From: Acaryochloris marina S15
Lineage (GTDB): Bacteria; Cyanobacteriota; Cyanobacteriia; Thermosynechococcales; Thermosynechococcaceae
NCBI RefSeq assembly: GCF_018336915.1
Contig: NZ_CP064923.1
Span: forward strand, 5,400,001-5,432,000
DNA length: 32,000 nucleotides
Direction: 5' to 3'
This document shows positions 72 through 27,201 of the stretch, in pieces (positions within the stretch are counted from its first letter, which is position 1; each line of letters begins with the position of its first letter). The notes beneath the pieces were generated by a model. That model had not been told where the DNA came from and made no database searches. It saw only the letters and a program-made list of their open reading frames with translations. The translations under genes and the position numbers were made by a program.

Positions 72-3000
72 ATGCCGACGGAAGCCTATAACTACTTTTT
101 ATTGGCTAACCTGTATTGGTCACAACGCCAGTTTGACCTAGCCCTGGACTTATATCGGTTTGCAGCCTGTCTAGAAGATAAGGAGCAAACCTATGGCCAC
201 AGCTATTTTCTGGCAGCTCGGGGCTGTCGACAAACGTCTGTGGCCTTACAGCTCTTACAACAACGGTGGCACCGGGACCAAAAGCAGTCGACCCGTCCTG
301 TTTATGCTTTGGCTATCGCCTATGACCATTTAGATCGCCCGTCCGAAGCCATAGAGGTTTTGGAACAAACCCAAGCCTGGCACCCGGACGATGGCGATTT
401 ACTGTTATATCGGGCCAAGTACCTGGGCGAGCATGGTCAGTTTGCCCAAGCCCATACCCTGCTAGACGAGGCCAAAGCCAAAACAGCCCATAGTCATTGG
501 TTAAGTACGGCTGCCAAACTCGCGCAGTTTGAATACAAGCCTGACAAAGCCCTCGACCTATGGCAACAGCTCGTCACAGCCGATCCTTTGGATATCGAGG
601 CGAATCGCGCTGTCAGTCAACTGTTAGCAGAACAGGAAGGAGTCACTGCCGCCCGTGAGTTTTTAGCAGCCACCTGCAGCACCTTCCCTGACCATGCCGG
701 GTTACATCACCTCTGGTATGAACAGGTGCAAGAGGGAGATCCGATCGTCGCAGAACAGGTGCTGCAACGACTGGTGGAGATTAACCCTAAAGACGCTTGG
801 TCCTGGCGACAGATTGCCTGGCAATTGGGTCGACAACAGCAGCTAGAGGCAGCATTTGAAACCTGCGAAACCGCTCAGCACCTAGATCCTCACAGCACGG
901 CCTATTTCACCATCTATGGGTGTCTCTGCATTTTGGCAAAAGACATGCCCACCGCTAAGACCGCGTTTAAAGAGGCGATTCAACGGTCTGTAGACTCTAG
1001 CCGAGCCATCTCAGAACTGATGGATATTTGCCAGTCCATAGAAGAACAAAAAGACGTTCTCGACTTTATCTTTCAAGAGTTTCAGCAACAGGTGATTACG
1101 GGGGATAGCCTGTTCACCTTTTATCAATACGCTCGCACTGTCTTGACGCCCGCAGACTTTGATCAACGCATACAAGAAGTTCATGCCGCTCGGCCCGATT
1201 TATGGCAGGCCTGGACCGTCAGGAGTCGGCAGCTCCTCAGCAGCGACCGAACAACGGAAGCCTTGGCAATTGCAGGGGAAGCAGCGGAGCGCTTTCCCCT
1301 CTTACCCAGAGTTTGGGTGGATTTAGCGATCGTGCATCGTACCCGCAAGGATGATGAGGCAGAAGAACAAGCCCTGCAAACCGCTTTACGAATTAATCCC
1401 GGGTGGGACAGCGCCATTCAACAGTTGGCGGATCTTTATGACCGCACTGATGCTCTAGACAAATGCAAAGCCCTGTTAGAAACAGCCCTGATGCATTCAC
1501 CCCTGGAGGCCTATCTTCATGGCTATCTTGCAGATGCACTGTGGAAACTGGATGGCCAAGAGACCGCACTGCAGCACTTACAGAAGGCCCTTCGCCTTGA
1601 TTCTAACTATGACTGGGGATGGAACAAGTTAAGAGAATGGGCTCAAGCATTGGAGCGTCTGCATCTAACCGCAGATCTGGCTCGGGAGCTAACAGTCACT
1701 CGATCGGGAGAGGCCCAATCCTGGTTGCGGTTAGCTGAGCACCTGGCCGAGGAGGACACGCTGGATGAACGGCTTGCTGCTGTAGATCAGGCGATTGAGC
1801 TCAATCCTTGCTATTGGGATGCCTATGATTTGAAGGCTCGGGTGTTGGCAGCCGCGGAGCGATTTGAGGATGCGATCGCAACCTGTACTCCCACCCAATT
1901 AGATGATGACTTACCCGTATCCTTGGCAGCTCGGGCCGCTTGGATTAAATACCAGCAAGGCAAGTTTGACGAGGCCATCCAAGACATGCAGGCTGTGGTT
2001 GCCAAAGACCCTGGCTATTATGCGGGATGGTATACCCTGGCCGATTGGTATCGGCAACAAAACAACCTAGAAGGATATCTAACTGCAGCGCAACAGCTGG
2101 TGCGGCTAGCTCCCAAAGATGCCATTTCGTGGGGATATCAGGGAGACGCTAAACACAAAACAGGGGATCGGTTAGGCGCGAAAGCAGATTTTCGCAAAGC
2201 CTTTGAACTAGATCCTGAATATAGCTTTGCAGGGTTGAGTCTATTTGATCTGGAATTAGAGGGCCTGGAGACTGAGTCAGCAGCAAAGACCCTAGCTCAA
2301 TTAAGGGAGCAGGATAATGATGAATTTGTCTTGGCTCGTACCGTCCAGTTAGCAGCCAGACAAAATGACCTTAGTACTGCCACTCAAACCTTAGAGAAAC
2401 TGTGTCTCTATCCCTGCGACTCTGAATGGCCCTTGAACACAGCCGTTGAGACTATGATTGCGGCTAATTGGACCACTCAAGCCCAAACCATTTTATTTGA
2501 CGCCTTCCCTCAGCCCAAGGTCTATCCACAGGTCGGGCATCACTGGGTCTATTGTTGTGTCAAGCTGAAGCAGCAGAAATTTTGCCAGAAGCAATTACGT
2601 AAGTTCCATCCTGAAAATCCAGTCCAAAGACAGGCACTGATCACCTATATCCGAATTTTGTCTTATCGCAATTCTTCCGCTCCCCTGATGAAGTTTCTTA
2701 GGGCGAACCGTGACGTCTTGAGATCGCACACTGAAACCTGGGGCATCGTGGGGTATGCCTTATCAGAACGGAAAGAGCACAAAATCAATCTCAAATGGTT
2801 ATCCGATTGGAAAAATCGTAGTGAGGTGCAGCCTTGGATGCTACTCAATCTGGTTCAATCATTCCAAGCAACCAAGGATCCTGCTAACGCTATCCCAGTC
2901 AGTCAATATGCCCTCACACTCCCAGACGATGATGGCACCCCAGTCCATCGGCTCTGGTTAGCTTATGCAGCGAGCTATGAAGGGCAGACTGCCAAAGCCA

Positions 3001-3353
3001 GTCAATATTTGCAGGACATTAATCCACAATATTTGGAAAAGGAATATCTGTTTCTTCAATATCTAGTGAAAGCCAATCTGGCGATTGACTGCCAAGAACT
3101 GCCCCGTCATCAGCGTATGGAACAAGCCAAGTTACATGTCCAGCAAGCGATGGCTGTGCATCCCGAGTTTCGAAGTCGTTTTTATTGGCAGCATGTTTTT
3201 TCGAATAGCGTGTGGAGAATTGCTAAACGGCGTCAAAGTATCAGCGGTTATATCTGGGCTCTCTCCCAAAGCATTCCACCCGATATCTTCTGGGCCATTA
3301 TCTATCTACTGGGAACGTTCTTTTTTCTCATCCTCAAAATTATGAATCCGTGA
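72..3353 (+). CDS. Large TPR-repeat protein with C-terminal membrane anchor (5' end may lie outside the window)
   Basis: 1093-codon ORF with recurrent TPR-like helical pairs (e.g. AYNYFLLANLYWSQRQFDLALDLYRFA; AWSWRQIAWQLGRQQQLEAAFETCETAQHLDP; GWYTLADWYRQQNNLEGYLTAAQQLVRLAP). Hydrophobic C-terminus IFWAIIYLLGTFFFLILKI. The same frame has no stop from nt 3, so the true start could be upstream of the window. Confidence 0.8.
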   Translation: MPTEAYNYFLLANLYWSQRQFDLALDLYRFAACLEDKEQTYGHSYFLAARGCRQTSVALQLLQQRWHRDQKQSTRPVYALAIAYDHLDRPSEAIEVLEQTQAWHPDDGDLLLYRAKYLGEHGQFAQAHTLLDEAKAKTAHSHWLSTAAKLAQFEYKPDKALDLWQQLVTADPLDIEANRAVSQLLAEQEGVTAAREFLAATCSTFPDHAGLHHLWYEQVQEGDPIVAEQVLQRLVEINPKDAWSWRQIAWQLGRQQQLEAAFETCETAQHLDPHSTAYFTIYGCLCILAKDMPTAKTAFKEAIQRSVDSSRAISELMDICQSIEEQKDVLDFIFQEFQQQVITGDSLFTFYQYARTVLTPADFDQRIQEVHAARPDLWQAWTVRSRQLLSSDRTTEALAIAGEAAERFPLLPRVWVDLAIVHRTRKDDEAEEQALQTALRINPGWDSAIQQLADLYDRTDALDKCKALLETALMHSPLEAYLHGYLADALWKLDGQETALQHLQKALRLDSNYDWGWNKLREWAQALERLHLTADLARELTVTRSGEAQSWLRLAEHLAEEDTLDERLAAVDQAIELNPCYWDAYDLKARVLAAAERFEDAIATCTPTQLDDDLPVSLAARAAWIKYQQGKFDEAIQDMQAVVAKDPGYYAGWYTLADWYRQQNNLEGYLTAAQQLVRLAPKDAISWGYQGDAKHKTGDRLGAKADFRKAFELDPEYSFAGLSLFDLELEGLETESAAKTLAQLREQDNDEFVLARTVQLAARQNDLSTATQTLEKLCLYPCDSEWPLNTAVETMIAANWTTQAQTILFDAFPQPKVYPQVGHHWVYCCVKLKQQKFCQKQLRKFHPENPVQRQALITYIRILSYRNSSAPLMKFLRANRDVLRSHTETWGIVGYALSERKEHKINLKWLSDWKNRSEVQPWMLLNLVQSFQATKDPANAIPVSQYALTLPDDDGTPVHRLWLAYAASYEGQTAKASQYLQDINPQYLEKEYLFLQYLVKANLAIDCQELPRHQRMEQAKLHVQQAMAVHPEFRSRFYWQHVFSNSVWRIAKRRQSISGYIWALSQSIPPDIFWAIIYLLGTFFFLILKIMNP

Positions 3354-14726: not shown

Positions 14727-15133
14727 GTTGACAGTGCCGTTACCTGCTGACATATCCAAGCACGCATAATTTAGGTCTAAATAGCAGATATCTTCACTGT
14801 TAGAGTTCTTCTCATTCTATCTGGGGGAAGATTCAGTGGGGCCTGTCAGGGATGAAACTTAAACAACAAGCCACAGTAAAGCTTCGGCAGGGTTTGCCTT
14901 TCGGATCGAAGACTTTATTGTCTTGGAATGATCAGCCTTGTCAATAAGATTGAGCAACCTGAAAAGAATTGGCCTATTCTTGGATTCCACTTGTGATAGA
15001 TAAATCATTACCCCCCGATATTTTTGCAACGCTAGAAAGCCCAGTTTATACAACCGCAATTTCTCCTAACGGGCAACAAGTCGTTGCAGGGTTAAAAGAT
15101 GGTTCTCTACATCTTTTCGATCTAGTGGAGGGC

Positions 15134-16746
15134 CAGCCCATCGGCCAACCCTTCGCGGGACATTCTGGCTATGTCTGGTCCGTCGCCTTCTCCCCTGATG
15201 GAAAAACCATCGTCAGTGGCAGTTATGACAACACCCTGCGCTTGTGGAATCTGGACGGACAGACCATCGGCCAACCCTTCTCGGGACATTCTGACACTGT
15301 CAGGTCCGTCGCCTTCTCCCCTGATGGAAAAACCATCGTCAGTGGCAGTGATGACAACACCCTGCGCTTGTGGAATCTGGACGGACAGACCATCGGCCAA
15401 CCCTTCGCGGGACATTCTGGCTCTGTCTGGTCCGTCGCCTTCTCCCCTGATGGAAAAACCATCGTCAGTGGCAGTTATGACAAAACCCTGCGCTTGTGGA
15501 ATCTGGACGGACAGACCATCGGCCAACCCTTCTCGGGACATTCTGACACTGTCAGGTCCGTCGCCTTCTCCCCTGATGGAAAAACCATCGTCAGTGGCAG
15601 TGATGACAACACCCTGCGCTTGTGGAATCTGGACGGACAGACCATCGGCCAACCCTTCGCGGGACATTCTGGCTCTGTCTGGTCCGTCGCCTTCTCCCCT
15701 GATGGAAAAACCATCGTCAGTGGCAGTTATGACAAAACCCTGCGCTTGTGGAATCTGGACGGACAGACCATCGGCCAACCCTTCTCGGGACATTCTGACA
15801 CTGTCAGGTCCGTCGCCTTCTCCCCTGATGGAAAAACCATCGTCAGTGGCAGTGATGACAACACCCTGCGCTTGTGGAATCTGGACGGACAGACCATCGG
15901 CCAACCCTTCGCGGGACATACTGGCTCTGTCAGGTCCGTCGCCTTCTCCCCTGATGGAAAAACCATCGTCAGTGGCAGTGATGACAAAACCCTGCGCTTG
16001 TGGAATCTGGACGGACAGACCATCGGCCAACCCTTCGCGGGACATTCTGGCTCTGTCTGGTCCGTCGCCTTCTCCCCTGATGGAAAAACCATCGTCAGTG
16101 GCAGTTATGACAAAACCCTGCGCTTGTGGAATCTGGACGGACAGACCATCGGCCAACCCTTCTCGGGACATTCTGACACTGTCAGGTCCGTCGCCTTCTC
16201 CCCTGATGGAAAAACCATCGTCAGTGGCAGTGATGACAACACCCTGCGCTTGTGGAATCTGGACGGACAGACCATCGGCCAACCCTTCGCGGGACATTCT
16301 GGCTCTGTCAGGTCCGTCGCCTTCTCCCCTGATGGAAAAACCATCGTCAGTGGCAGTGATGACAACACCCTGCGCTTGTGGAATCTGGACGGACAGACCA
16401 TCGGCCAACCCTTCGCGGGACATACTGGCTCTGTCAGGTCCGTCGCCTTCTCCCCTGATGGAAAAACCATCGTCAGTGGCAGTGATGACAACACCCTGCG
16501 CTTGTGGAATCTGGACGGACAGACCATCGGCCAACCCTTCGCGGGACATTCTGGCTCTGTCTGGTCCGTCGCCTTCTCCCCTGATGGAAAAACCATCGTC
16601 AGTGGCAGTTATGACAAAACCCTGCGCTTGTGGAATCTGGACGGACAGACCATCGGCCAACCCTTCTCGGGACATTCTGACACTGTCAGGTCCGTCGCCT
16701 TCTCCCCTGATGGAAAAACCATCGTCAGTGGCAGTGATGACAAAAC
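15134..16746 (+). repeat. Tandem array of ~12.8 near-identical 126-bp (42-codon) WD40 units with a 252-bp higher-order period
   Basis: Direct reading shows invariant blocks such as tccgtcgccttctcccctgatggaaaaaccatcgtcagtggcagt and accctgcgcttgtggaatctggacggacagaccatcggccaacccttc recurring every 126 nt. Differences are limited to 7 codons per unit. Confidence 0.95.
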
Positions 16747-17231
16747 AGTATGTTTGTGTAAACGCACCATTGAGAAAGACTTCAAACTCCTGTGGATGTG
16801 CCCTCCCATCATTGCCAAACCCATTAAAAATTTATCTGAGCTGATCGGCAATATCCTCATTTCTCAGGGAATCAAAAACGATCGAGCGTTTGGTCATGAT
16901 GCCTTAGATGTCGAGGATGAAATTAATGCTTTAACTGAAGTACTGCTACTCAGGAGTTTGACCCCTCCAGTTGCCGTCGGCCTATTAGGCAATTGGGGCA
17001 GTGGAAAATCGTTTGGCATGCATCTCATTCAATCCCAGATCAAGGCTCGACGACGCCAAGCACTGACATCAGAAGAAGCCTGGGGAAAGTGGAACCCCAG
17101 GCAAGAAGCACAGATTGAACGCATGTCACCATTTGTGGGTCATGTTTACCAGATTCAATTCAACGCCTGGACCTATGCCAAGTCCAATCTTTGGGCAAGT
17201 TTGATGCAGGAAATCTTTTATGAATTGAATC

Positions 17232-17240
17232 GACAAATTA
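17232..17240. repeat. Left copy of 9-bp target-site duplication GACAAATTA
   Basis: Identical 9-mer directly abuts both IS ends (17232-17240 and 18727-18735). Confidence 0.85.
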
Positions 17241-18726
17241 GGGCGTAAGCAAAGGATCGGGGATGCATGGCTCAAAGAAAAACGGGTCAAGGACAATAGA
17301 TCCTGTACCCGAACCAAAAAACTATCATGACCCTACCATCGCAATTGCTAACCGTGCTAGCCCATGACGAATTTCTAGAACAAACTGAAGCACTCAAAGT
17401 ATCAACCAGCCTGAGTCAGATGGTTTATATCGTTCTGCAAATGGGCTTGTTTCTAGCTCGCTGTCTTCTGGAGGATGAACTCTCAAGGCGCGCGAAAGCA
17501 GTATTTGTATGGCCTGTATGTACTACCTGCGGAACCCGCTTACATTCGAAGGGATGGGAATCTCGTCAGATGCAGACACTGGTAGGCACTATCTCTTGAA
17601 AGCGACGGGTGGGCCGTTGTCCCAAAGGATGTCCAGGCAGTCTGTTGACTCCCCTGGATCAAGCCATTGGGATTGCCCCCTATCAGCACAGCAGCGAAGA
17701 ACTGGTGCGTCTGGGCTGCTTGTTGAGTCTGTTCATGCCCTATGAACTGGCCAGTTGGATGCTGGGTCAGTGGAGTGGTCTATCCGTGAGTCCATCCAGT
17801 TTGTGGAACTGGGTGCAATCCGTGGGTAACAAAGCTCAGCAGGAATTAGAAGCTCAACTCAACGCTCAATCATCAGGGACTCAGGCCCCTTGTGAAGCGA
17901 TTTCAGAGATGTTATCTGCTCTACCTTTGGCCATTGCCGCCGATGGTGTGATGGTCCCCTTTCGCCCCACCCCGAACTCACCCAAGGGAAAAATCCAGTG
18001 GCGAGAAGTCAAAGTCGCCATCTTAGCTCGCCTGGGAACACGGGTTACCCGAGCTAAAAAGGAGGTCCCCCAATTACTGCGTCGAAGACTGGTGGCAGTA
18101 TTGGGCGATATCGACCAGTTCATCCCTTTACTTCAACTCGAAGCTCACAAACAAGACTTTGAATCTGCTCCAAAAGTCATCTGGCTCAGTGATGGGGGAC
18201 GAGGCTTCTGGCGAGTCTATCGCACCTTGTTCTCTCATTGTGCTGTGGCAGTCCTCGACTTTTTTCATTCAGCAGGCCATCTGGCACGAGCAACTAAAGC
18301 GATGTTTGGAGATGCCCGCTCTGCTCAAGCCCAAGCCTGGTTCCGGCACTGGCGACACCAATTGCGACACGGGCAACACCTACTTGTATTACGGTCCTTG
18401 ACGATATTGATTCACTCACAACTGTTAACGGGAAAGTCTTTTTCAACGTTGCTCCAGGTGCAGGCTTATTTCCAACGCCATCATAACCACATCCGTTATC
18501 GGCACTTTGAACAGCAACAGATTCCTCTCGGGTCAGGAATGGTTGAAAGTGCATGCAAGTGGTTGATTCAGCAGCGCTTTAAGGGAGTTGGCATGCGCTG
18601 GAGTGAGGATGGTTTCAACCATTTACTGATCTTGAGAATTGCCTGGGTCAATGAACGGTTTGACTCCTTATTCCCAGAGGTGACCATTCCGAAAACTAAG
18701 GCATCCCCGATCCGCTAAATACGCCC
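17241..18726 (+). mobile_element. Insertion sequence, 1486 bp, single DDE-type transposase (ISKra4-like; family assignment tentative)
   Basis: 26-bp imperfect terminal inverted repeats: left gggcgtaagcaaaggatcggggatgc (17241-17266), right gcatccccgatccgctaaatacgccc (18701-18726). 21/26 positions match by my alignment. Flanked by the 9-bp direct repeat GACAAATTA. Interrupts an otherwise continuous reading frame. Confidence 0.9.
17327..18718 (+). pseudogene. IS transposase reading frame interrupted by one in-frame TGA (17597-17599)
   Basis: ORFs 17327..17599 and 17609..18718 are in the same frame, separated only by TGA plus three sense codons (..TLVGTIS*KRRVGRCPKGC..). Cys-rich zinc-finger-like segment CTTCG...CPKGC. 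Candidate DDE residues in IAADGVMVPF, WLSDGGRGFW and GSGMVESACKW. Confidence 0.7.
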
Positions 18727-18735
18727 GACAAATTA
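18727..18735. repeat. Right copy of 9-bp target-site duplication GACAAATTA
   Basis: See left copy. It directly follows the right IR. Confidence 0.85.
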
Positions 18736-21716
18736 CCTTAGAACAAAAATTGGGCCGTTTTTTAAGCAATAAGGATGCCCCACTCACTGAAAACGCATCG
18801 CCAACCAGTCCTGCTCATCGGGGCCAGCATTACACTCCCTATAAATTTCTGAATTATTATATTCTCCGCCACTATCGGCTGATCCAATCCTTCTATCGAC
18901 CGATTAAAAACACAATCTATGCATTTTTTATAGCATTTCTTTCTTTCTTAGATTTAGCGATTGGGCAACTCATTATTCATCTAGGAGTGATATTTCTCAC
19001 TATTCTTTGGATCATCCTTTTTCTAACCACTCCACTCTTGCAGTGGCTCACAGAAAAAATTCGCTTCAAGTCTTCAGATATAGATTGGGTTGATAACCTT
19101 GGTGAGTTTATTGAGGCTTTACTCTTTATTTATATAGATTGGTTAAAAAGACAGCTTATAACATATTATTTTCCCCAGATAAATCACTTACCAAGTGCAA
19201 GCAAGTTAGACTACTTCTTGCAGTTTGTTGAGCGTAGTTTATTTTTCTTTTTGGAAGGTTTTCCAAAAAGAATACGGGATCGAATAACTTATTGGCAACG
19301 CCAGCAAGGGGCATTAGAGTCAACAGAAGCAGAAAGCCATTCCCCGCAAACACCACTTGGTATAGACGAGAACCTCCAATTCGGTGAAATTGCTCGTGTC
19401 AATCAAGCTTTACGTCAAGGCGGGCCATTATGGGAGGTCCTATATGAAATCAACGAGGCAGATGCCGATGTCCTCCTCGAACAACGGCTTAGCAAGGAAG
19501 ACAGAGCAAAGTGGAACAACTTAAAATCCAATCAAGAAATATCCAATGTCCTTTGGTCAACGCTAGATAAAATTCAACGACAGAAAAATCAGAATTTTCA
19601 AGCCTTAGAGCAAAAGCTTAAAGAAGCCGAGAAAACGTTAGAACGAAAGCAAAAAAGCAACAAAATTAGTATCAATCAGAAACTCAATCAACGAAAAATA
19701 AGAGCGCTCTGGACACCGTTTTTTAACGGTATAGCGCGGCTCAAATTTTCTAAGGAGGACATCGAAGCCTATTCTGCCGCTGGCACATCGTTTCAAAAGT
19801 TTCGTGACACCATTAAAAGCTGGCAAGGCTTACTTGCCTTATTTTGTATGGGGTTGTTGATTGCGCTCACCGCTAGTTCTGAAAGTCGAGAAGCAATTAC
19901 CCAACTGTTACAAACCATCCTGAATTCTCAAGCCCTTCGTAACCTCATACCTGAATGGATCAAGAACAGTCTCAATTCACTAGTCTCTTGGCTTCCTAAG
20001 GCAATCCAAGCATTTCCAACCTGGCTTCAGATTGGATCTGCGACGTTGATTAGCTTACTACCCGTCATAAAAGCCCTTACAACTTACATTGGCTCAGTCC
20101 AAAAAGAGCAAGCTCGCATTCAAGGCGAAAAAGAGACCTTAATCCAACAGTCCCAAGACAGAGTCACATCAGAAGCCCAAGAAGTCGCTCAGCTACGTTT
20201 AAGAGTCGAAGAAGAACGCCAACAATTGGGACCAAATGCCCAATATCCTTCTCTACTCGACTTCGTCAACGCTCGAATCTCAGGCGATGACTATGGTAAA
20301 CATCTGGGTCTCATGCAGCAAATCAAACAAGATCTTGCAGCCTTATCCTCACGTCTGACCCTGAATCAAAGCAATGAGCAAGATATTCAACAACTATTTC
20401 CCCGCGGTCCTGCCAGAGTATTTCTCTACATTGATGATCTCGATCGTTGTCCCCCCGACCGCGTCGTTGAAGTGCTCGAAGCAGTCCAGCTTCTCCTTAA
20501 TACCAAACTATTTGTCGTCATTTTAGCCATTGACGATCGCTACATTGCCCGCGCGTTAGAACAAGTTTATGCAGGCGTTCTCAAGCGCCGAGGCAAACCC
20601 TCTGGCATCGACTACTTAGAAAAAATCATCCAAATCCCCTATCGACTGCGTCCTATTTCACCCGATACCGTTGAAAGATACTTTCGTTCACAGCTCACCA
20701 TCAAAAAAGAAGATCAGTCATGTGATAAAGGCACAGCACAACAGACTATCTCACATCTCAGTACTAAGCCTTCAGGTCACTCTCATTCAGAATTAAATCA
20801 ACTTGAGAGTCAGTATGTTCAAGACACAGTCAACTCAGAGTCTGAAAAATTACAGCCCACAACAGATAAAGTAGATAATCCATCAAACCAAAATGGTGAA
20901 TCGATAACTCAGAACCTCACCTCCTCTACTAAATCCTCAGAGGAAAATTTACCCAGTCCTAAACCATCTGAGTCATATGCCAAAGCTGCTGTCAGTCCAA
21001 GCACAGAACAAGCAGAACGTCTAAAAGCTTCCGTGAATGAACCGGAGACCAATACTAGTTCTAACGAGAGCAATGCAGAGCCATTAAACAAACCTCCGAC
21101 TCCAGAAGAAGTCACCTATATCTCAACGATTGCAACCGTCGATGCATTTGATGAAGAGGAACTCAAGCTTTTAGTCGATTGCTGTAAATATGTGGATATA
21201 ACCCCTCGAACAGGCAAAAGGTTAATCAATATCTACAAAATCCTACAAATTATTTGGAAAAAGAGGCATAAGGAAAAAGATCACGATCTTCCCTCTGATC
21301 AAACAAAGCGAATAGTGATGTCATTTCTTGCATTATCAGGCAGATACCCTGACTTTATGCGCAATCTCTTTGACGAAATCGATATGCTACTGGAGAAAGA
21401 AACTTTTGCTTCAACCAATGGAGAGATACTCATAAATCCTTCGATTCATCTATCTCTCTCAGAAACACTTGAGACTCTAGCCCCCACAAGCGATTCAAAA
21501 AACTCCCAAGATTTTCACACCAAGAGAGAATGGGATCGTTTCACCTCAGACATTAAACGCATGGTGGCGGACTCTTACACTACAACCGCAGACCCTGTTC
21601 TCACCTTAGATCGCAGAACCTTTTCTTTAATGCTTTCATTCTGCTTTGTGGGAGATCTTGGCTATGACCCAGATGATCACCCAGTGAACGTTCCAACACT
21701 TCAAAATCCTGAATAA
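18736..21716 (+). pseudogene. 3' part of the IS-disrupted WD40-KAP NTPase gene (TM insert, coiled coils, Walker B, disordered insert, C-terminal helical region)
   Basis: In frame with the 5' part once 17241..18735 is removed. Hydrophobic segments IYAFFIAFLSFLDLAIGQLIIHLGVIFLTILWIILFLTTPLL, LLALFCMGLLIALTA and WLQIGSATLISLLPVIKAL. Walker B VFLYIDDLDRC (20418-20450). KAP-like C-terminal ITPRTGKRLINIYKIL. No ATG start of its own (the track uses TTG 18750). Confidence 0.85.
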
Positions 21717-21989
21717 TTCACATTCGTCTGCAAGACTGCTTGAGCAGAGATTACCATTGGCGACCTCAACATCTAACCACTTTGTAAGTAGAGTGCAGTC
21801 TGCATTACACCCAAACAGCAAAATATGATGATGCCATACGGAAAAAGCGAAGTTTGCCAACAATTTTGCTAACAGACTCATTCAACGGGACGGTGCAATA
21901 TCTACACTATCCATGCAATGGCGTTATGATCTTCTCAAGCAACCTGGACCTTTTATGGTGATCGCGTCTCAGCAAACAATCCATAGATT

Positions 21990-22394
21990 ATGCCCCATAT
22001 CCCCTCCTTAACCCAGGTGCAATTAGAAATTCTTCGCCTCGCGAAAGAGAATGATGGTGAAACGCTGCAACTATCCTTTGAATCCCCCGTCATGGGTCAG
22101 GGTGAACCCCCCAGCGATCATCCTCCTTTAATGCAAGAGATGATTGACCTAGGCTTACTCGAAGTACAATCCAGTCGGGTCTATTGCGATACTTCTCGAT
22201 TTCAGAGAGATTGCTGGTTTGAATACTGCGCCAATTTAGAACTGCCCTCCATCTACGCCTGGGAATTATGGCGCCAAGAATTTATTGAGAAGCAGGAAGG
22301 ATCAACCACACTCATCTCGCCTGGAGAAGAATTTGAAGATTTCAGCTATGTGTGGGTACAAGAAATGATATTTCGGGCTGTTCAACCCAGCTAA
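21990..22394 (+). CDS. Hypothetical protein (orphan)
   Basis: 134-aa ORF with ATG start, acidic. No recognisable domain. The N-terminal LTQVQLEILRLAKENDG is only vaguely HTH-like. Confidence 0.45.
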   Translation: MPHIPSLTQVQLEILRLAKENDGETLQLSFESPVMGQGEPPSDHPPLMQEMIDLGLLEVQSSRVYCDTSRFQRDCWFEYCANLELPSIYAWELWRQEFIEKQEGSTTLISPGEEFEDFSYVWVQEMIFRAVQPS

Positions 22395-22564
22395 CGCTGG
22401 GATTATGGCTTTTACTCGAAAAAGTGAACATTCCCGAAGAGTCCGTCGTATTTTTGGGTAAATCTTTGAGCGAGTGAACCTTTGCCACTACTATTTGCAG
22501 CTCAGATTAGAAGCTTTCACTCACACTTAGCTATTCTAGAATTACCCTTAGTGAGATTAATGTG

Positions 22565-23077
22565 ATGGGCCAAAAAATCTTTAGTCCTGGTGAACTTGTT
22601 GAAGAAAGTGGCTTGTATCCCGTTGTTGGCCCTAGAGGTGGAGACAAAGGATACGAAGTGACTGCCGTAAAAGGAGAACCTTTTCCACCACTCCCTGAAA
22701 AAGGATGGGGATTTGGCAAACCTCAGTTAGCCAAAACAAGTGCAAGCCACTCAAGTGCAGCCCTAGTTGAGTATTCGCCACCCGAACTACCGAATCATCG
22801 TCCTATCACTACAGGGAATCTAGCGTTAGTCCCCTCTGAGACATTGCCCGGTGGCCGTCCTATACTGGTCGGAACCCGTCAGGTGAGTAGCTTTGATCAT
22901 TTACCTCAACATCGTCCTGTCTTTGAAAGTGATTTGAACATCGTGGCGATGGTCGGCGATCGTCCTGTGATTAGCTTAGATTCATCCCTCATTCCCTCAG
23001 ACTCTTTACCAGGCAATCGCCCCATTGCCGAGAACAACTCTTCTCCAAGCGGGAATTTGATGGGTTACTTAGATTGA
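22565..23077 (+). CDS. Hypothetical protein: YjzC-like N-terminus plus five degenerate LPxxRP(I/V) repeats
   Basis: ATG at 22565 (GTG at 22562 also possible). N-terminus FSPGELVEESGLYPVVGPRGGDKGYEVTAVKGEPFPP resembles the small YjzC family from memory. C-terminal half carries LPNHRPI, LPGGRPI, LPQHRPV, VGDRPV and LPGNRPI at ~17-22 aa spacing. Confidence 0.55.
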   Translation: MGQKIFSPGELVEESGLYPVVGPRGGDKGYEVTAVKGEPFPPLPEKGWGFGKPQLAKTSASHSSAALVEYSPPELPNHRPITTGNLALVPSETLPGGRPILVGTRQVSSFDHLPQHRPVFESDLNIVAMVGDRPVISLDSSLIPSDSLPGNRPIAENNSSPSGNLMGYLD

Positions 23078-25435: not shown

Positions 25436-26203
25436 ATGGTCTCTGAACGATTGTCACAAGCCCTACAGGCTTTGGAGCATCATCCTCAACACCTTCGCAT
25501 CCGAAAATTAATTTACTTTGTCAGTCATCAGCATTGGCCGAGCGATCGCATTCCACAAGACCTTATGCAGCTCGATGTCTTGGTTCCGATCTTGCTCGCC
25601 CAGGTGACCACCGCTCAAGACTTAGGCCATCTGTTATCCAAGCGAGCTGCCAAGCTCAATAAATCCAAAACCTATCTGCCCATTGCCGACGCCATTAGTC
25701 AAACGTTGGCTCCCCTCTGTCAGTCCACGCCTACCATGCCAGACTATGGAGTGCCAGAAGCACTCAGTCCATCTCCCATTGGGGCAGGGGCAATCTACAG
25801 TCTGTTTGACCTAAAAGCAGCCCTAATGCAGTCCACCAACCCGCTGAAAGCAAAAATCTTGATCTTTTCAGCTCTCTATCATCCCTTTAGTTTCAGACGT
25901 CAAAATTGGTTGAACCTAAAGCAACGCTCCTTAGATAAATTACTGCAAACCCTATTCACCACCTATCCCAGCTTTGCGGCCCTAGAACAGAAGTTGATGC
26001 AAACGGCCGATCAGCTAGACACCCTCGATCAGAGTCAACAAGTGGTTCATGCCCTATTACGGGCCGTCCTTCCCCAATACCGAGGTCAATCCCTCGCCAC
26101 GCTAGAGAAACCAGGGCCAGAACCGTTAATCCAGACTGCAATCGACGACTTAGGAATTGAAGATGATATGCTCACTTGCCAATTAGTGACCCAGGCTTCC
26201 TGA
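25436..26203 (+). CDS. Hypothetical protein
   Basis: 255-aa ORF with ATG start and ordinary composition. It ends 5 nt before the pentapeptide-repeat gene start. No domain recognised. Confidence 0.6.
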   Translation: MVSERLSQALQALEHHPQHLRIRKLIYFVSHQHWPSDRIPQDLMQLDVLVPILLAQVTTAQDLGHLLSKRAAKLNKSKTYLPIADAISQTLAPLCQSTPTMPDYGVPEALSPSPIGAGAIYSLFDLKAALMQSTNPLKAKILIFSALYHPFSFRRQNWLNLKQRSLDKLLQTLFTTYPSFAALEQKLMQTADQLDTLDQSQQVVHALLRAVLPQYRGQSLATLEKPGPEPLIQTAIDDLGIEDDMLTCQLVTQAS

Positions 26204-26208
26204 AGGAT

Positions 26209-27201
26209 ATGAAAGCTAAAGCACTACTTAAACAATATGCTGACAATGTCTTTGACTTCAGTGGTCAAACTCTAGCAGGCGTAGATCTAGCAGGGGCTGA
26301 CTTGATTGGCATCAATCTATCAGCAGCGGACCTACGCAATACAAATTTGAGTTTGGCCTACTTGAATCGAGTGGATCTGCAAACTAGCAACCTGACCCAA
26401 AGCAACTTGAGCGGGGCTACCTTGGCTCAGGCCAACTTAAGCCAAGCAAACCTCACGGATGCAGCCCTGCATGGGGCGAATCTACAACGCGCCGTCCTAT
26501 TCAAAGCCGATCTGACCTTGGCAGATCTAACAGATGCCAATCTGATGGAAGCCGATCTGCGGGAAGTCACACTCCGCAGTACCAACCTCACAGGAGCTTG
26601 TCTACGCAGTGCCAACCTGCGGGAAGAAAATCGCAACTGTGCAGATCTTAGAGGAGCTGTCCTCGATGGGGTCGATCTTCAAGGGGCCAATTTACATGGA
26701 GCCGATCTGAGCAAAGTTAGCTTACAAGGAGCAAATCTCCGCAATGCCAATTTGCGAGCAGCCAATTTGGCCGGGGCCGATCTACAGGGCGCTAATCTTG
26801 AGCAAGCCTTGCTGATTGAGGCCAATCTCCAGCAAGCGAATCTGAGTCACGCCACCTTAGCCGATGCAAAGCTAGAGCGAGTGAATCTCCAGATGGCTCA
26901 GCTTGTCAACAGTGATTTAAGCGACTGCACCTTGGTGGAGAGTGACCTCAGTCAAGCCAATTTGCAAGGCGCAATGCTATATCGCAGTCGGCTGAATCGG
27001 GCCAATCTCAGTCGGGCAAACCTAACAGCAGCTAACCTGCAAGAAGCATTTCTGATTCAAGCATTTTTAGCCAGAACCGATCTCACGGATGCGAATCTCC
27101 AAGGTGCCAATCTAACCCGTTCAGATTGGAGTAGTGCAATTCTAACCAGAACCGTCTTAACGGGAGCGACACTACCCGACGGTACAGCCTGTGAAACTTG
27201 A
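26209..27201 (+). CDS. Pentapeptide-repeat protein
   Basis: Nearly the whole protein is A(D/N)LxG/A(N/D)Lxx pentads (ADLAGADLIGINLSAADLRNTNLSLAYLNRVDL...). The ORF is open from 26176, but the ATG at 26209 follows the upstream stop and is the likely start. Confidence 0.9.
   Translation: MKAKALLKQYADNVFDFSGQTLAGVDLAGADLIGINLSAADLRNTNLSLAYLNRVDLQTSNLTQSNLSGATLAQANLSQANLTDAALHGANLQRAVLFKADLTLADLTDANLMEADLREVTLRSTNLTGACLRSANLREENRNCADLRGAVLDGVDLQGANLHGADLSKVSLQGANLRNANLRAANLAGADLQGANLEQALLIEANLQQANLSHATLADAKLERVNLQMAQLVNSDLSDCTLVESDLSQANLQGAMLYRSRLNRANLSRANLTAANLQEAFLIQAFLARTDLTDANLQGANLTRSDWSSAILTRTVLTGATLPDGTACET

Follow-up and report, generated by a model that had tools for sequence, protein, structure and literature searches.

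Recently amplified WD40 propellers have reportedly been described by Chaudhuri in 2008, Dunin-Horkawicz in 2014 and Afanasieva in 2019, and were treated by Pereira and Lupas in 2022 (PMC9218822). Here, we report on a tandem array of near-identical WD40 blades encoded in a 32,000-nt stretch of Acaryochloris marina S15 (contig NZ_CP064923.1, positions 5,400,001 to 5,432,000; this whole stretch is called the window, and positions are given within it), where the array forms the N-terminus of a 1750-aa KAP P-loop NTPase whose gene has been split by an insertion sequence (IS). The phenomenon and its interpretation have already been published for bacteria, and no new category is proposed. The closest precedent is the Npun_R6612 protein (PDB entry 2YMU), together with the bacterial recently amplified propellers, rather than the fungal genes with which a first-pass annotation, made from the DNA letters alone, had compared the array. 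What is new here is the KAP NTPase as the partner of an N-terminal array, the presence of two blade types arranged as AB dimers, an apparent conversion tract at the array edge, and the knock-out by an IS.

The two 7-bladed propellers of Npun_R6612 comprise 14 blades separated by ~10 point mutations and no synonymous substitutions; the first strand is conserved and was not amplified, many relatives are disrupted by frameshifts or stop codons, and the pattern was interpreted as rapid turnover in innate immunity (PMC9218822). Highly-Repetitive WD40 proteins, as surveyed by Hu et al. 2017 (Sci Rep 7:10585), are enriched in cyanobacteria, have low dS between repeats and carry their diversity at predicted interaction hotspots (PMC5587647). 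In the fungal HNWD/NWD genes, WD units of 42 residues with ~85% or more internal identity are polymorphic in repeat number, evolve in concert by shuffling, and are under positive selection at about four positions of the interaction surface (PMC4986451). KAP NTPases, finally, are a family only lately shown to defend against phages, experimentally so in Firmicutes; PifA, QatA and EF_KAP restrict phages, defence by EF_KAP needs Walker B, and T7 exclusion by PifA comes with membrane permeability lesions (PMC13552941). A literature search of incomplete coverage found no paper discussing WD40-KAP proteins.

We argue below that the internal blades of the Acaryochloris array underwent very recent amplification or homogenisation and that amino-acid differences at predicted ligand positions were kept. 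To this evolutionary description as a whole we give a probability of roughly 0.7.

Results

Blades of the array differ only at a few codons

Tandem Repeats Finder (TRF) reported a single array at 15126 to 16743 (period 126, 12.8 copies, 95% matches, 0 indels, score 2984) and no second high-identity tandem array in the window. Stepping by 126 nt from position 15134 gives 13 near-identical units (15134 to 16746, + strand), all in the frame of an open reading frame (ORF) at 14969 to 17248, with unit 13 departing from the repeat past column 101. The unit translates to QTIGQPF[A/S]GH[S/T][G/D][S/T/Y]V[W/R]SVAFSPDGKTIVSGS[Y/D]D[N/K]TLRLWNLDG, and 13 stretches were matched by Pfam PF00400 (WD40; E = 1.7e-179). 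A degenerate unit 0 at 15008 to 15133 (+ strand), translating to LPPDIFATLESPVYTTAISPNGQQVVAGLKDGSLHLFDLVEG and forming strands at residues 18 to 43 of the structural model described below, precedes the array as an un-homogenised first blade and brings the total to 14 blades.

Comparing the units column by column, we found 9 variable nucleotide columns spread over 8 codons: codon 2 (CCC/ACC, P/T, in unit 1 only), codon 8 (GCG/TCG, A/S), codon 11 (TCT/ACT, S/T), codon 12 (GGC/GAC, G/D), codon 13 (TCT/ACT/TAT, S/T/Y), codon 15 (TGG/AGG, W/R), codon 31 (TAT/GAT, Y/D) and codon 33 (AAC/AAA, N/K). All nine columns are nonsynonymous and none is synonymous; the lone synonymous difference, GGC versus GGA, sits in the final codon of unit 0, at the degenerate left edge. 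Identity from unit to unit was 94.4 to 100% (mean 97.1%) for nucleotides and 85.7 to 100% (mean 91.4%) for amino acids, the latter taken pairwise over the 12 full units, which is well within the internal identity of at least 0.7 by which Hu et al. delimit Highly-Repetitive WD40 proteins.

The units follow one another in the order A'-B-A-B-A-B-C-A-B-D-C-A-B, with perfect 252-bp periodicity over 15233 to 15919, and W pairs with Y and R with D in every case. With only 6 distinct unit types present, this linkage carries the weight of about one split in the ancestry of the units, not of 13 independent cases, and we rejected it as evidence of co-selection. The first-pass annotation had identified the units as WD40 blades, given their order, the AB dimers and the W-Y and R-D pairs, and noted that every variant inside the array is nonsynonymous, all of which held up. 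It had placed the variation at seven codons; each of the seven was recovered, and the total became eight with the P/T change at codon 2 of unit 1, which had been missed. Long ORFs in other frames also cross the array (15171 to 16844, + strand, 557 aa; 15122 to 16675, - strand, 517 aa). These were rejected as genes, since they are most likely by-products of a periodic 126-nt unit that is free of stop codons.

Variable codons map to the predicted top face of two propellers

Among PDB sequences, the best match to the array was 2YMU, a Nostoc punctiforme propeller (E = 2.8e-237), followed by WRAP-T designs, Apaf-1 (E = 6.7e-75, with a match by fold as well) and WDR5. Unit codons 9 to 32 align without gaps to WDR5 residues 127 to 150 (the fragment GHSNYVF...SGSFD corresponds to residues 127 to 158 of the full-length chain); codons 13, 15 and 31 thereby pair with Y131, F133 and F149, respectively, just as had been claimed for the S/T/Y, W/R and Y/D sites. 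In WDR5, these three residues contact WIN-site ligands (PMC11094138).

The residues encoded by 14993 to 16780 were modeled with AlphaFold2 (AF2), using alignment A3 as input, and the model had a mean predicted local distance difference test score (pLDDT) of 93.5. Strand a spans codons 14 to 19, strand b codons 25 to 30 and strand c codons 35 to 39, with bridge residues for strand d. The variable codons 8 and 11 to 13 fall in the d-a loop ahead of strand a, codon 15 comes second in strand a, and both codon 31 and codon 33 belong to the b-c turn, which agrees with where the remaining variable sites had been predicted to be. The d-a and b-c loops form the top face of WD40 propellers. The differences kept between the blades are amino-acid changes at predicted top-face ligand positions only.

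The model also indicates that the 14 blades would close into two 7-bladed propellers, since pLDDT drops at residues 291 to 310, the boundary of blades 6 and 7. In Foldseek searches, the top match was again 2YMU (E = 3.2e-76, 56% identity), and 7BIG, a 7-bladed WRAP-T design, aligned with a target-normalised TM-score of 0.98 and a root-mean-square deviation of 0.9 Å. The PF00400 matches, the AF2 model and the alignment to 7BIG all identify the array as a WD40 beta-propeller.

Positions of the variable sites point to selection

In the consensus unit, a random mutation that creates no stop has a probability of 0.69 to 0.77 of being nonsynonymous, and nine nonsynonymous columns out of nine are expected by chance with P = 0.037 to 0.095. 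The all-nonsynonymous count alone is marginal, suggestive only and not significant by itself. The positions of the variable sites are stronger evidence. The hotspot codons 13, 15 and 31 (the R1-2, R1 and D-1 sites) were fixed beforehand from knowledge of WDR5 and WDSP, and the probability of finding at least 4 of the 9 variable columns within their 9 nucleotides is 1.3e-3. The corresponding probability is 1.7e-4 for at least 8 of the 9 columns lying within the two top-face loop segments, and 1.4e-4 for 6 of the 8 variable codons being among the 8 most variable columns of orthologous arrays.

In nine orthologous arrays from other cyanobacteria, the variable codons of the window ranked 1, 2, 4, 5, 7, 8, 11 and 12 of 42 by within-array entropy (Mann-Whitney p = 4.9e-5). 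Using Nei-Gojobori (NG86) counts, which are pairwise and non-independent, we obtained a dN/dS of 1.60 pooled (range 0.94 to 5.5) at codons 8, 11, 12, 13, 15, 31 and 33 (the hot codons) and 0.33 (0.11 to 0.49) at scaffold codons. On these sequence comparisons, the same positions that vary in the window are hypervariable in the orthologous arrays, with dN/dS of at least 1, and the scaffold codons are under purifying selection.

A neutral and very recent amplification of one or two blades, with unselected differences accumulating under relaxed constraint where the fold tolerates change, would also yield near-identical units. Pereira and Lupas view such arrays mainly as fresh amplifications (PMC9218822), several orthologous arrays are near-neutral at the hot codons (dN/dS 0.94 to 1.5), and the chance probability of the all-nonsynonymous count is only 0.037 to 0.095. 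We nevertheless regard this explanation as unlikely. With ~30 synonymous sites per unit, zero differences among 12 units imply a total synonymous tree length below ~0.1 substitutions per site, and over the same period 8 substitutions, each in its own column, arose in the ~16 nonsynonymous sites of seven codons; neutral sites cannot outpace synonymous sites in this way. Moreover, dN/dS reached 3.2 to 5.5 at the same codons in three of the orthologous arrays, and the hotspot codons set in advance were enriched.

Transversions account for eight of the nine variable columns and A is involved in seven, a spectrum which is unusual for neutral mutation and which would fit selection for radical amino-acid changes. 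The same spectrum could be taken as a sign of targeted hypermutation, for instance by a diversity-generating retroelement (DGR), and putative sensors, including KAP-linked ones, are diversified by DGRs in multicellular bacteria (PMC10907252). However, no reverse transcriptase was matched among the scanned ORFs of the window, two variable columns have no A state (G/T at codon 8 and T/G at codon 31), and DGRs target C-type lectin or Ig folds that have one variable region, rather than tandem blades. The array was not assigned to DGR targets, and we consider hypermutation of this kind extremely improbable.

Very recent amplification or homogenisation of the internal blades

An orthologue of the WD40-KAP gene lies in synteny on L001, from an Acaryochloris metagenome-assembled genome (MAG), with a KAP part that is 87% identical in the best tblastn segment and 83% when aligned in full. 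In a comparison of L001 with the window, dS and ω are 0.38 and 0.24 for the KAP part and 0.64 and 0.04 for pdxJ, the upstream gene; by this comparison, the KAP gene has been under constraint for most of its history. Since the split from L001, the array should have gathered dozens of synonymous differences, and it has none (pS = 0 across the 12 units). Set against a KAP dS of 0.38, this fits recent amplification or homogenisation. The internal blades have been amplified or homogenised very recently, erasing all synonymous divergence, and two edge blades have escaped, with unit 0 and the tail of unit 13 diverging from the repeat as in other recently amplified propellers. Both edges are conserved in L001 and in L019, from another Acaryochloris lineage, and a unit of the unit 0 type likewise opens the arrays of L002, L004 to L007, L012 and L015. 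Amplification or homogenisation ran through unequal recombination or gene conversion, in registers of 126 bp and 252 bp.

WD40-KAP fusions of 1100 to 1900 residues are common in cyanobacteria, including Pseudanabaena, Phormidium, Leptolyngbya, Hormoscilla and Anabaena. Their arrays hold 7, ~11, or 13 to 14 units with a within-array TRF identity of 81 to 92%. Nucleotide identity between units is 0.82 to 0.95 within an array as against 0.54 to 0.70 between distant lineages, and no positional orthology of units was found among the arrays of Pseudanabaena species. Judged by this pattern, re-amplification or homogenisation of the arrays has proceeded separately in each lineage, while unit 0 and a truncated last unit persist.

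The short-read Logan contigs L017 and L018, which carry the identical pdxJ, each break off within unit 1. L017 agrees with the window throughout, the left junction included. At the junction of units 0 and 1, L018, which stems from a different strain (SRR17348482, L018:2640-2680), reads GAC GGA CAG ACC, which is the array consensus, and the window (15125 to 15145) reads GAG GGC CAG CCC. These four clustered changes toward the consensus resemble a gene-conversion tract that enlarges the homogenised zone, and they are direct, if small, evidence of a strain-to-strain difference in homogenisation. In L001, the array consists of unit 0, one unit with a 4-bp GTCA insertion that shifts the frame, and the last unit (L001:9365-9990); its units differ from those of the window at the same hot codons and also by synonymous differences, and its shortness is likely a short-read collapse. 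L019, whose KAP part is 73% identical, has unit 0 and one unit only, along with several stop codons in the KAP part (L019:6900-8300). For both L001 and L019, real decay and short-read artefact are indistinguishable in short-read data.

Such contigs bear on whether the number, order or near-identity of the units in the window could itself stem from collapse, expansion or consensus polishing during assembly. Short-read Acaryochloris assemblies do break or collapse at the array, ending in unit 1 (L017 and L018) or retaining 2 to 3 units only, with the 4-bp frameshift (L001 and L019). The window, in contrast, comes from a 5.88-Mb contig in which the array stays in frame throughout with 0 indels and has six unit types in a non-trivial order. 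It folds in the AF2 model as exactly 14 blades in two closed 7-bladed propellers, a blade number that matches 2YMU and the orthologues with 7 or 13 to 14 units, and the independent read set of L017 gives an identical left junction. An assembly artefact is thus very unlikely.

Exchange with paralogous arrays carrying the same unit was also considered. No protein more than 68% identical to the array was found in a database of 5.8 billion sequences, and conserved segments of the unit, scanned twice as DNA against JGI metagenomes, gave no match, so inter-locus exchange was rejected. The same genome encodes, on the same 5.88-Mb contig but outside the window, a DUF4062-nSTAND1-WD40 protein of 1307 aa (P0175) that is 61% identical to the array. 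Its 14 C-terminal blades have a mean identity of 74% and vary at the same codons (11 to 13, 15 and 31), and by sequence it is a second highly repetitive propeller in this genome, of the WRAP type.

The array belongs to a KAP NTPase gene split by an ISKra4 element

Downstream of the array, an ISKra4-family IS of 1486 bp occupies 17241 to 18726 (+ strand), bounded by imperfect 26-nt terminal inverted repeats (17241 to 17266 and 18701 to 18726). A 9-bp target-site duplication, GACAAATTA, was found by direct-repeat search at 17232 to 17240 on the left and at 18727 to 18735 on the right, within the direct repeat CGACAAATTA (17231 to 17240 and 18726 to 18735). When 17241 to 18735 is deleted in silico, a single uninterrupted in-frame ORF of 1750 codons results, which reads, in order, 14 WD40 blades, the KAP Walker A motif, two hydrophobic segments and Walker B.

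The 5' part of the disrupted gene thus extends over 14993 to 17240 (+ strand). The ORF call starts at TTG 14969; GTG 14993 is the likelier start, because L001 has an ATG one codon after that position. Positions 16747 to 17240 (+ strand) complete the last blade and continue through a linker into the N-terminal portion of the KAP core, with Walker A (GNWGSGKS, residue 674 of the restored protein) at 16988 to 17011 and a weak match to positions 25 to 71 of the QatA (KAP) profile. The 3' part runs from 18736 to 21716 (+ strand) and includes the C-terminal region. Its ORF (18750 to 21716) matched positions 73 to 290 of Pfam PF07693 KAP_NTPase (E = 7.5e-26, 91.5 bits against a cut-off of 20). Walker B (VFLYIDDLDR, residue 1319) is at 20418 to 20447, and two membrane segments, called as Kyte-Doolittle peaks of at least 1.6, are predicted at ~18969 to 19025 and 19812 to 19880 (residues 836 to 854 and 1117 to 1139). 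The PF07693 score and the hydrophobic segments between Walker A and Walker B place the protein in the KAP family. The 3' fragment is 100% identical to P0002, annotated as 'P-loop NTPase fold protein [Acaryochloris marina]'. The 759-aa WD40 fragment is absent from the protein database of 5.8 billion sequences, presumably through annotation as a pseudogene. Over 19000 to 22000, which covers the KAP insertion and the C-terminal half with coiled-coil-like, S/N/E/Q-rich low-complexity segments, G+C is 0.40 to 0.45 as compared with ~0.50 elsewhere, and GC skew is strongly negative.

The transposase of the IS scored 222.9 bits against NCBIfam NF033572 (cut-off 205), which, together with the inverted repeats and the target-site duplication, assigns the element to ISKra4; its frame is broken by an in-frame TGA at 17597 to 17599. 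A full-length copy, 99.7% identical and annotated as an ISKra4 transposase, is present on plasmid pMB01 of Acaryochloris sp. 'Moss Beach', flanked by a 9-bp duplication of its own, ATTGCGATC. Relative to the copy in the window, the pMB01 copy has one substitution and two 1-bp indels that compensate for each other (~17330 and ~17676), and neither copy encodes the full-length ISKra4 profile in a single frame.

The IS separates Walker A from Walker B, and the split allele is most likely non-functional, in which case the pattern in the array records past selection. This bears on the first-pass proposal of ongoing repeat shuffling or concerted evolution with diversifying selection. Recent homogenisation, and hypervariable contact codons in the orthologous arrays, agree with the proposal, whereas its 'ongoing' part is doubtful for this allele because the IS splits the gene.

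Surroundings of the WD40-KAP gene

The WD40-KAP gene lies in cyanobacterial surroundings: other genes in the window encode acetyl-CoA synthetase, a P-type ATPase, cytochrome c, PdxJ, RecN, a GNAT acetyltransferase and a pentapeptide-repeat protein. For two downstream ORFs, 21990 to 22394 (134 aa) and 22562 to 23077 (171 aa), searches of Pfam, NCBIfam and PADLOC gave nothing; L019 has ORFs of comparable length (134 and 170 aa) between KAP and recN. Other repeat proteins in the window are a 1093-aa TPR protein at 72 to 3353 and the 341-aa pentapeptide-repeat protein at 26176 to 27201.

Discussion

We propose that the array binds ligands as the N-terminal domain of a large WD40-KAP P-loop NTPase of cyanobacteria, and that its two 7-bladed propellers may offer a diversifying sensor surface, the top faces of which would bind a variable and probably foreign protein. 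By analogy with PifA, QatA, EF_KAP, Npun_R6612 and Apaf-1, ligand binding might then switch the membrane-associated KAP NTPase. For this immune-sensor reading, as distinct from the evolutionary description, we put the odds at about even.

The propellers could instead serve a housekeeping or signalling scaffold with endogenous partners, where blade variation tunes binding to self proteins and no non-self recognition takes place. The neighbourhood of pdxJ, the GNAT acetyltransferase, cytochrome c and recN would suit such a role, as would the synteny of the locus in three Acaryochloris lineages, the purifying selection on the KAP part (ω 0.24) and the weakness of the PADLOC and NCBIfam matches to defence KAPs. 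Independent knock-outs by an IS, by stop codons and by a frameshift in related lineages would be unexpected for a housekeeping gene, though, and a fixed partner would not typically go with hypervariable contact sites. In a scan of one genome per species, the MAG L001 was recovered and no Acaryochloris marina record, which suggests that the WD40-KAP gene may not be universal in Acaryochloris marina. Furthermore, TIR, caspase, trypsin-like, PNP (nucleoside phosphorylase) or peptidoglycan-binding modules take the place of the array in other KAP relatives, and module swapping of this kind, which here includes N-terminal TIR, caspase and peptidase modules, is treated by Aravind and colleagues as typical of conflict systems (PMC7159879). 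A scaffold of this type seems improbable to us.

Several points weigh against our own proposal. The sensor role is one that we infer, with a ligand and a phenotype that are hypothetical. Similarity to characterised defence KAPs is weak, with QatA scoring 56 bits against a cut-off of 600 and PADLOC matching the KAP core to PDC-S20, QatA and PifA (E = 1e-18 to 3e-11; 3.4e-11 for PifA) over the Walker B region only; we did not assign the protein to the Qat or Pif systems, and no Qat partner genes are present in the window. Scans of the window ORFs found no defence genes or island flanking the WD40-KAP gene. The allele in the window is disrupted and the orthologues in two other Acaryochloris lineages look damaged or collapsed; the gene could simply be a dispensable one. 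For the number and order of units there is one assembly, at a locus where short-read assemblies break or collapse. As regards selection, the all-nonsynonymous count has a marginal chance probability, the pooled dN/dS is built on non-independent pairwise counts, and part of this signal of ~1.6 could reflect relaxed constraint on surface loops, several orthologous arrays being near-neutral at the hot codons.

If the proposal is true, the combination of homogenisation with diversification of contact residues, a regime already known from fungal NWD genes and Nostoc WRAP proteins, extends beyond STAND/NLR-type receptors to KAP NTPases. With 14 blades, 9 substitutions at predicted ligand-contact positions and two blade 'types', the array is a very clean natural example, suited to testing how blade composition sets specificity, and its IS knock-out, like the damaged orthologues, exemplifies the rapid turnover that conflict genes should show. 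More tentatively, WD40-KAP NTPases might constitute a distinct, undescribed class of cyanobacterial immune receptors, intracellular or membrane-proximal, whose blades act as shuffled cassettes. 'Aromatic' W/Y blades and 'charged' R/D blades, sometimes joined as 252-bp AB dimers, would be rearranged by unequal recombination into new top-face specificities, as a bacterial counterpart of fungal HET-E/NWD shuffling on a KAP rather than a STAND chassis, with fast birth and death of genes that would include IS knock-outs. We hold this possibility to be doubtful at present.

Comparison with known systems

Apaf-1 also has two WD40 propellers on a P-loop NTPase, which sense cytochrome c, but these have 7 and 8 diverged blades, lie C-terminal to an AP-ATPase (STAND) and serve a CARD effector. 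With the defence KAPs, the protein shares the KAP core, the separation of Walker A and Walker B by hydrophobic or transmembrane insertions, and variable accessory fusions; none of PifA, QatA, PDC-S20 and EF_KAP has a WD40 array, however, and QatA acts in a four-gene system.

The evolutionary regime of the array is that of HET-E, HET-D and HET-R of Podospora anserina, and it was to fungal NACHT-WD40 genes that the first-pass annotation had likened it. That attribution falls, since the NTPase is a KAP without a NACHT match in Pfam or NCBIfam and the host is Acaryochloris; these scans, the homologues and the IS copies on Acaryochloris plasmids rule out both a NACHT domain and a fungal origin. The fungal HNWD proteins are eukaryotic, carry, from the N-terminus on, a HET or other effector, a NACHT NOD and the WD40 domain, and have a genetically demonstrated role in heterokaryon incompatibility. 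They also exchange repeats between paralogues, of which the window gave no sign, the same-genome P0175 protein being 61% identical and no array exceeding 68% identity.

The array falls in with the Highly-Repetitive WD40 proteins of Hu et al., its mean internal identity of 0.91 comparing with their bound of at least 0.7, and KAP and Acaryochloris are each mentioned 0 times in that survey (PMC5587647). The closest likeness is to Npun_R6612. The propellers of Npun_R6612 are C-terminal to a STAND ATPase and operon-linked to a TIR-STAND protein, whereas the array in the window is N-terminal to a KAP NTPase with hydrophobic insertions and has no evident partner gene. We did not count it among the STAND-linked WRAP proteins, as no TIR or STAND match was found in the scanned ORFs, and its blades are only ~56 to 60% identical to those of Npun_R6612. 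Like the Npun_R6612 WRAP, nonetheless, it is cyanobacterial, consists of 14 blades of 42 residues and is fused to a P-loop NTPase, and in sequence alignment the blades of Npun_R6612 alternate between W, R and N at the equivalent of codon 15.

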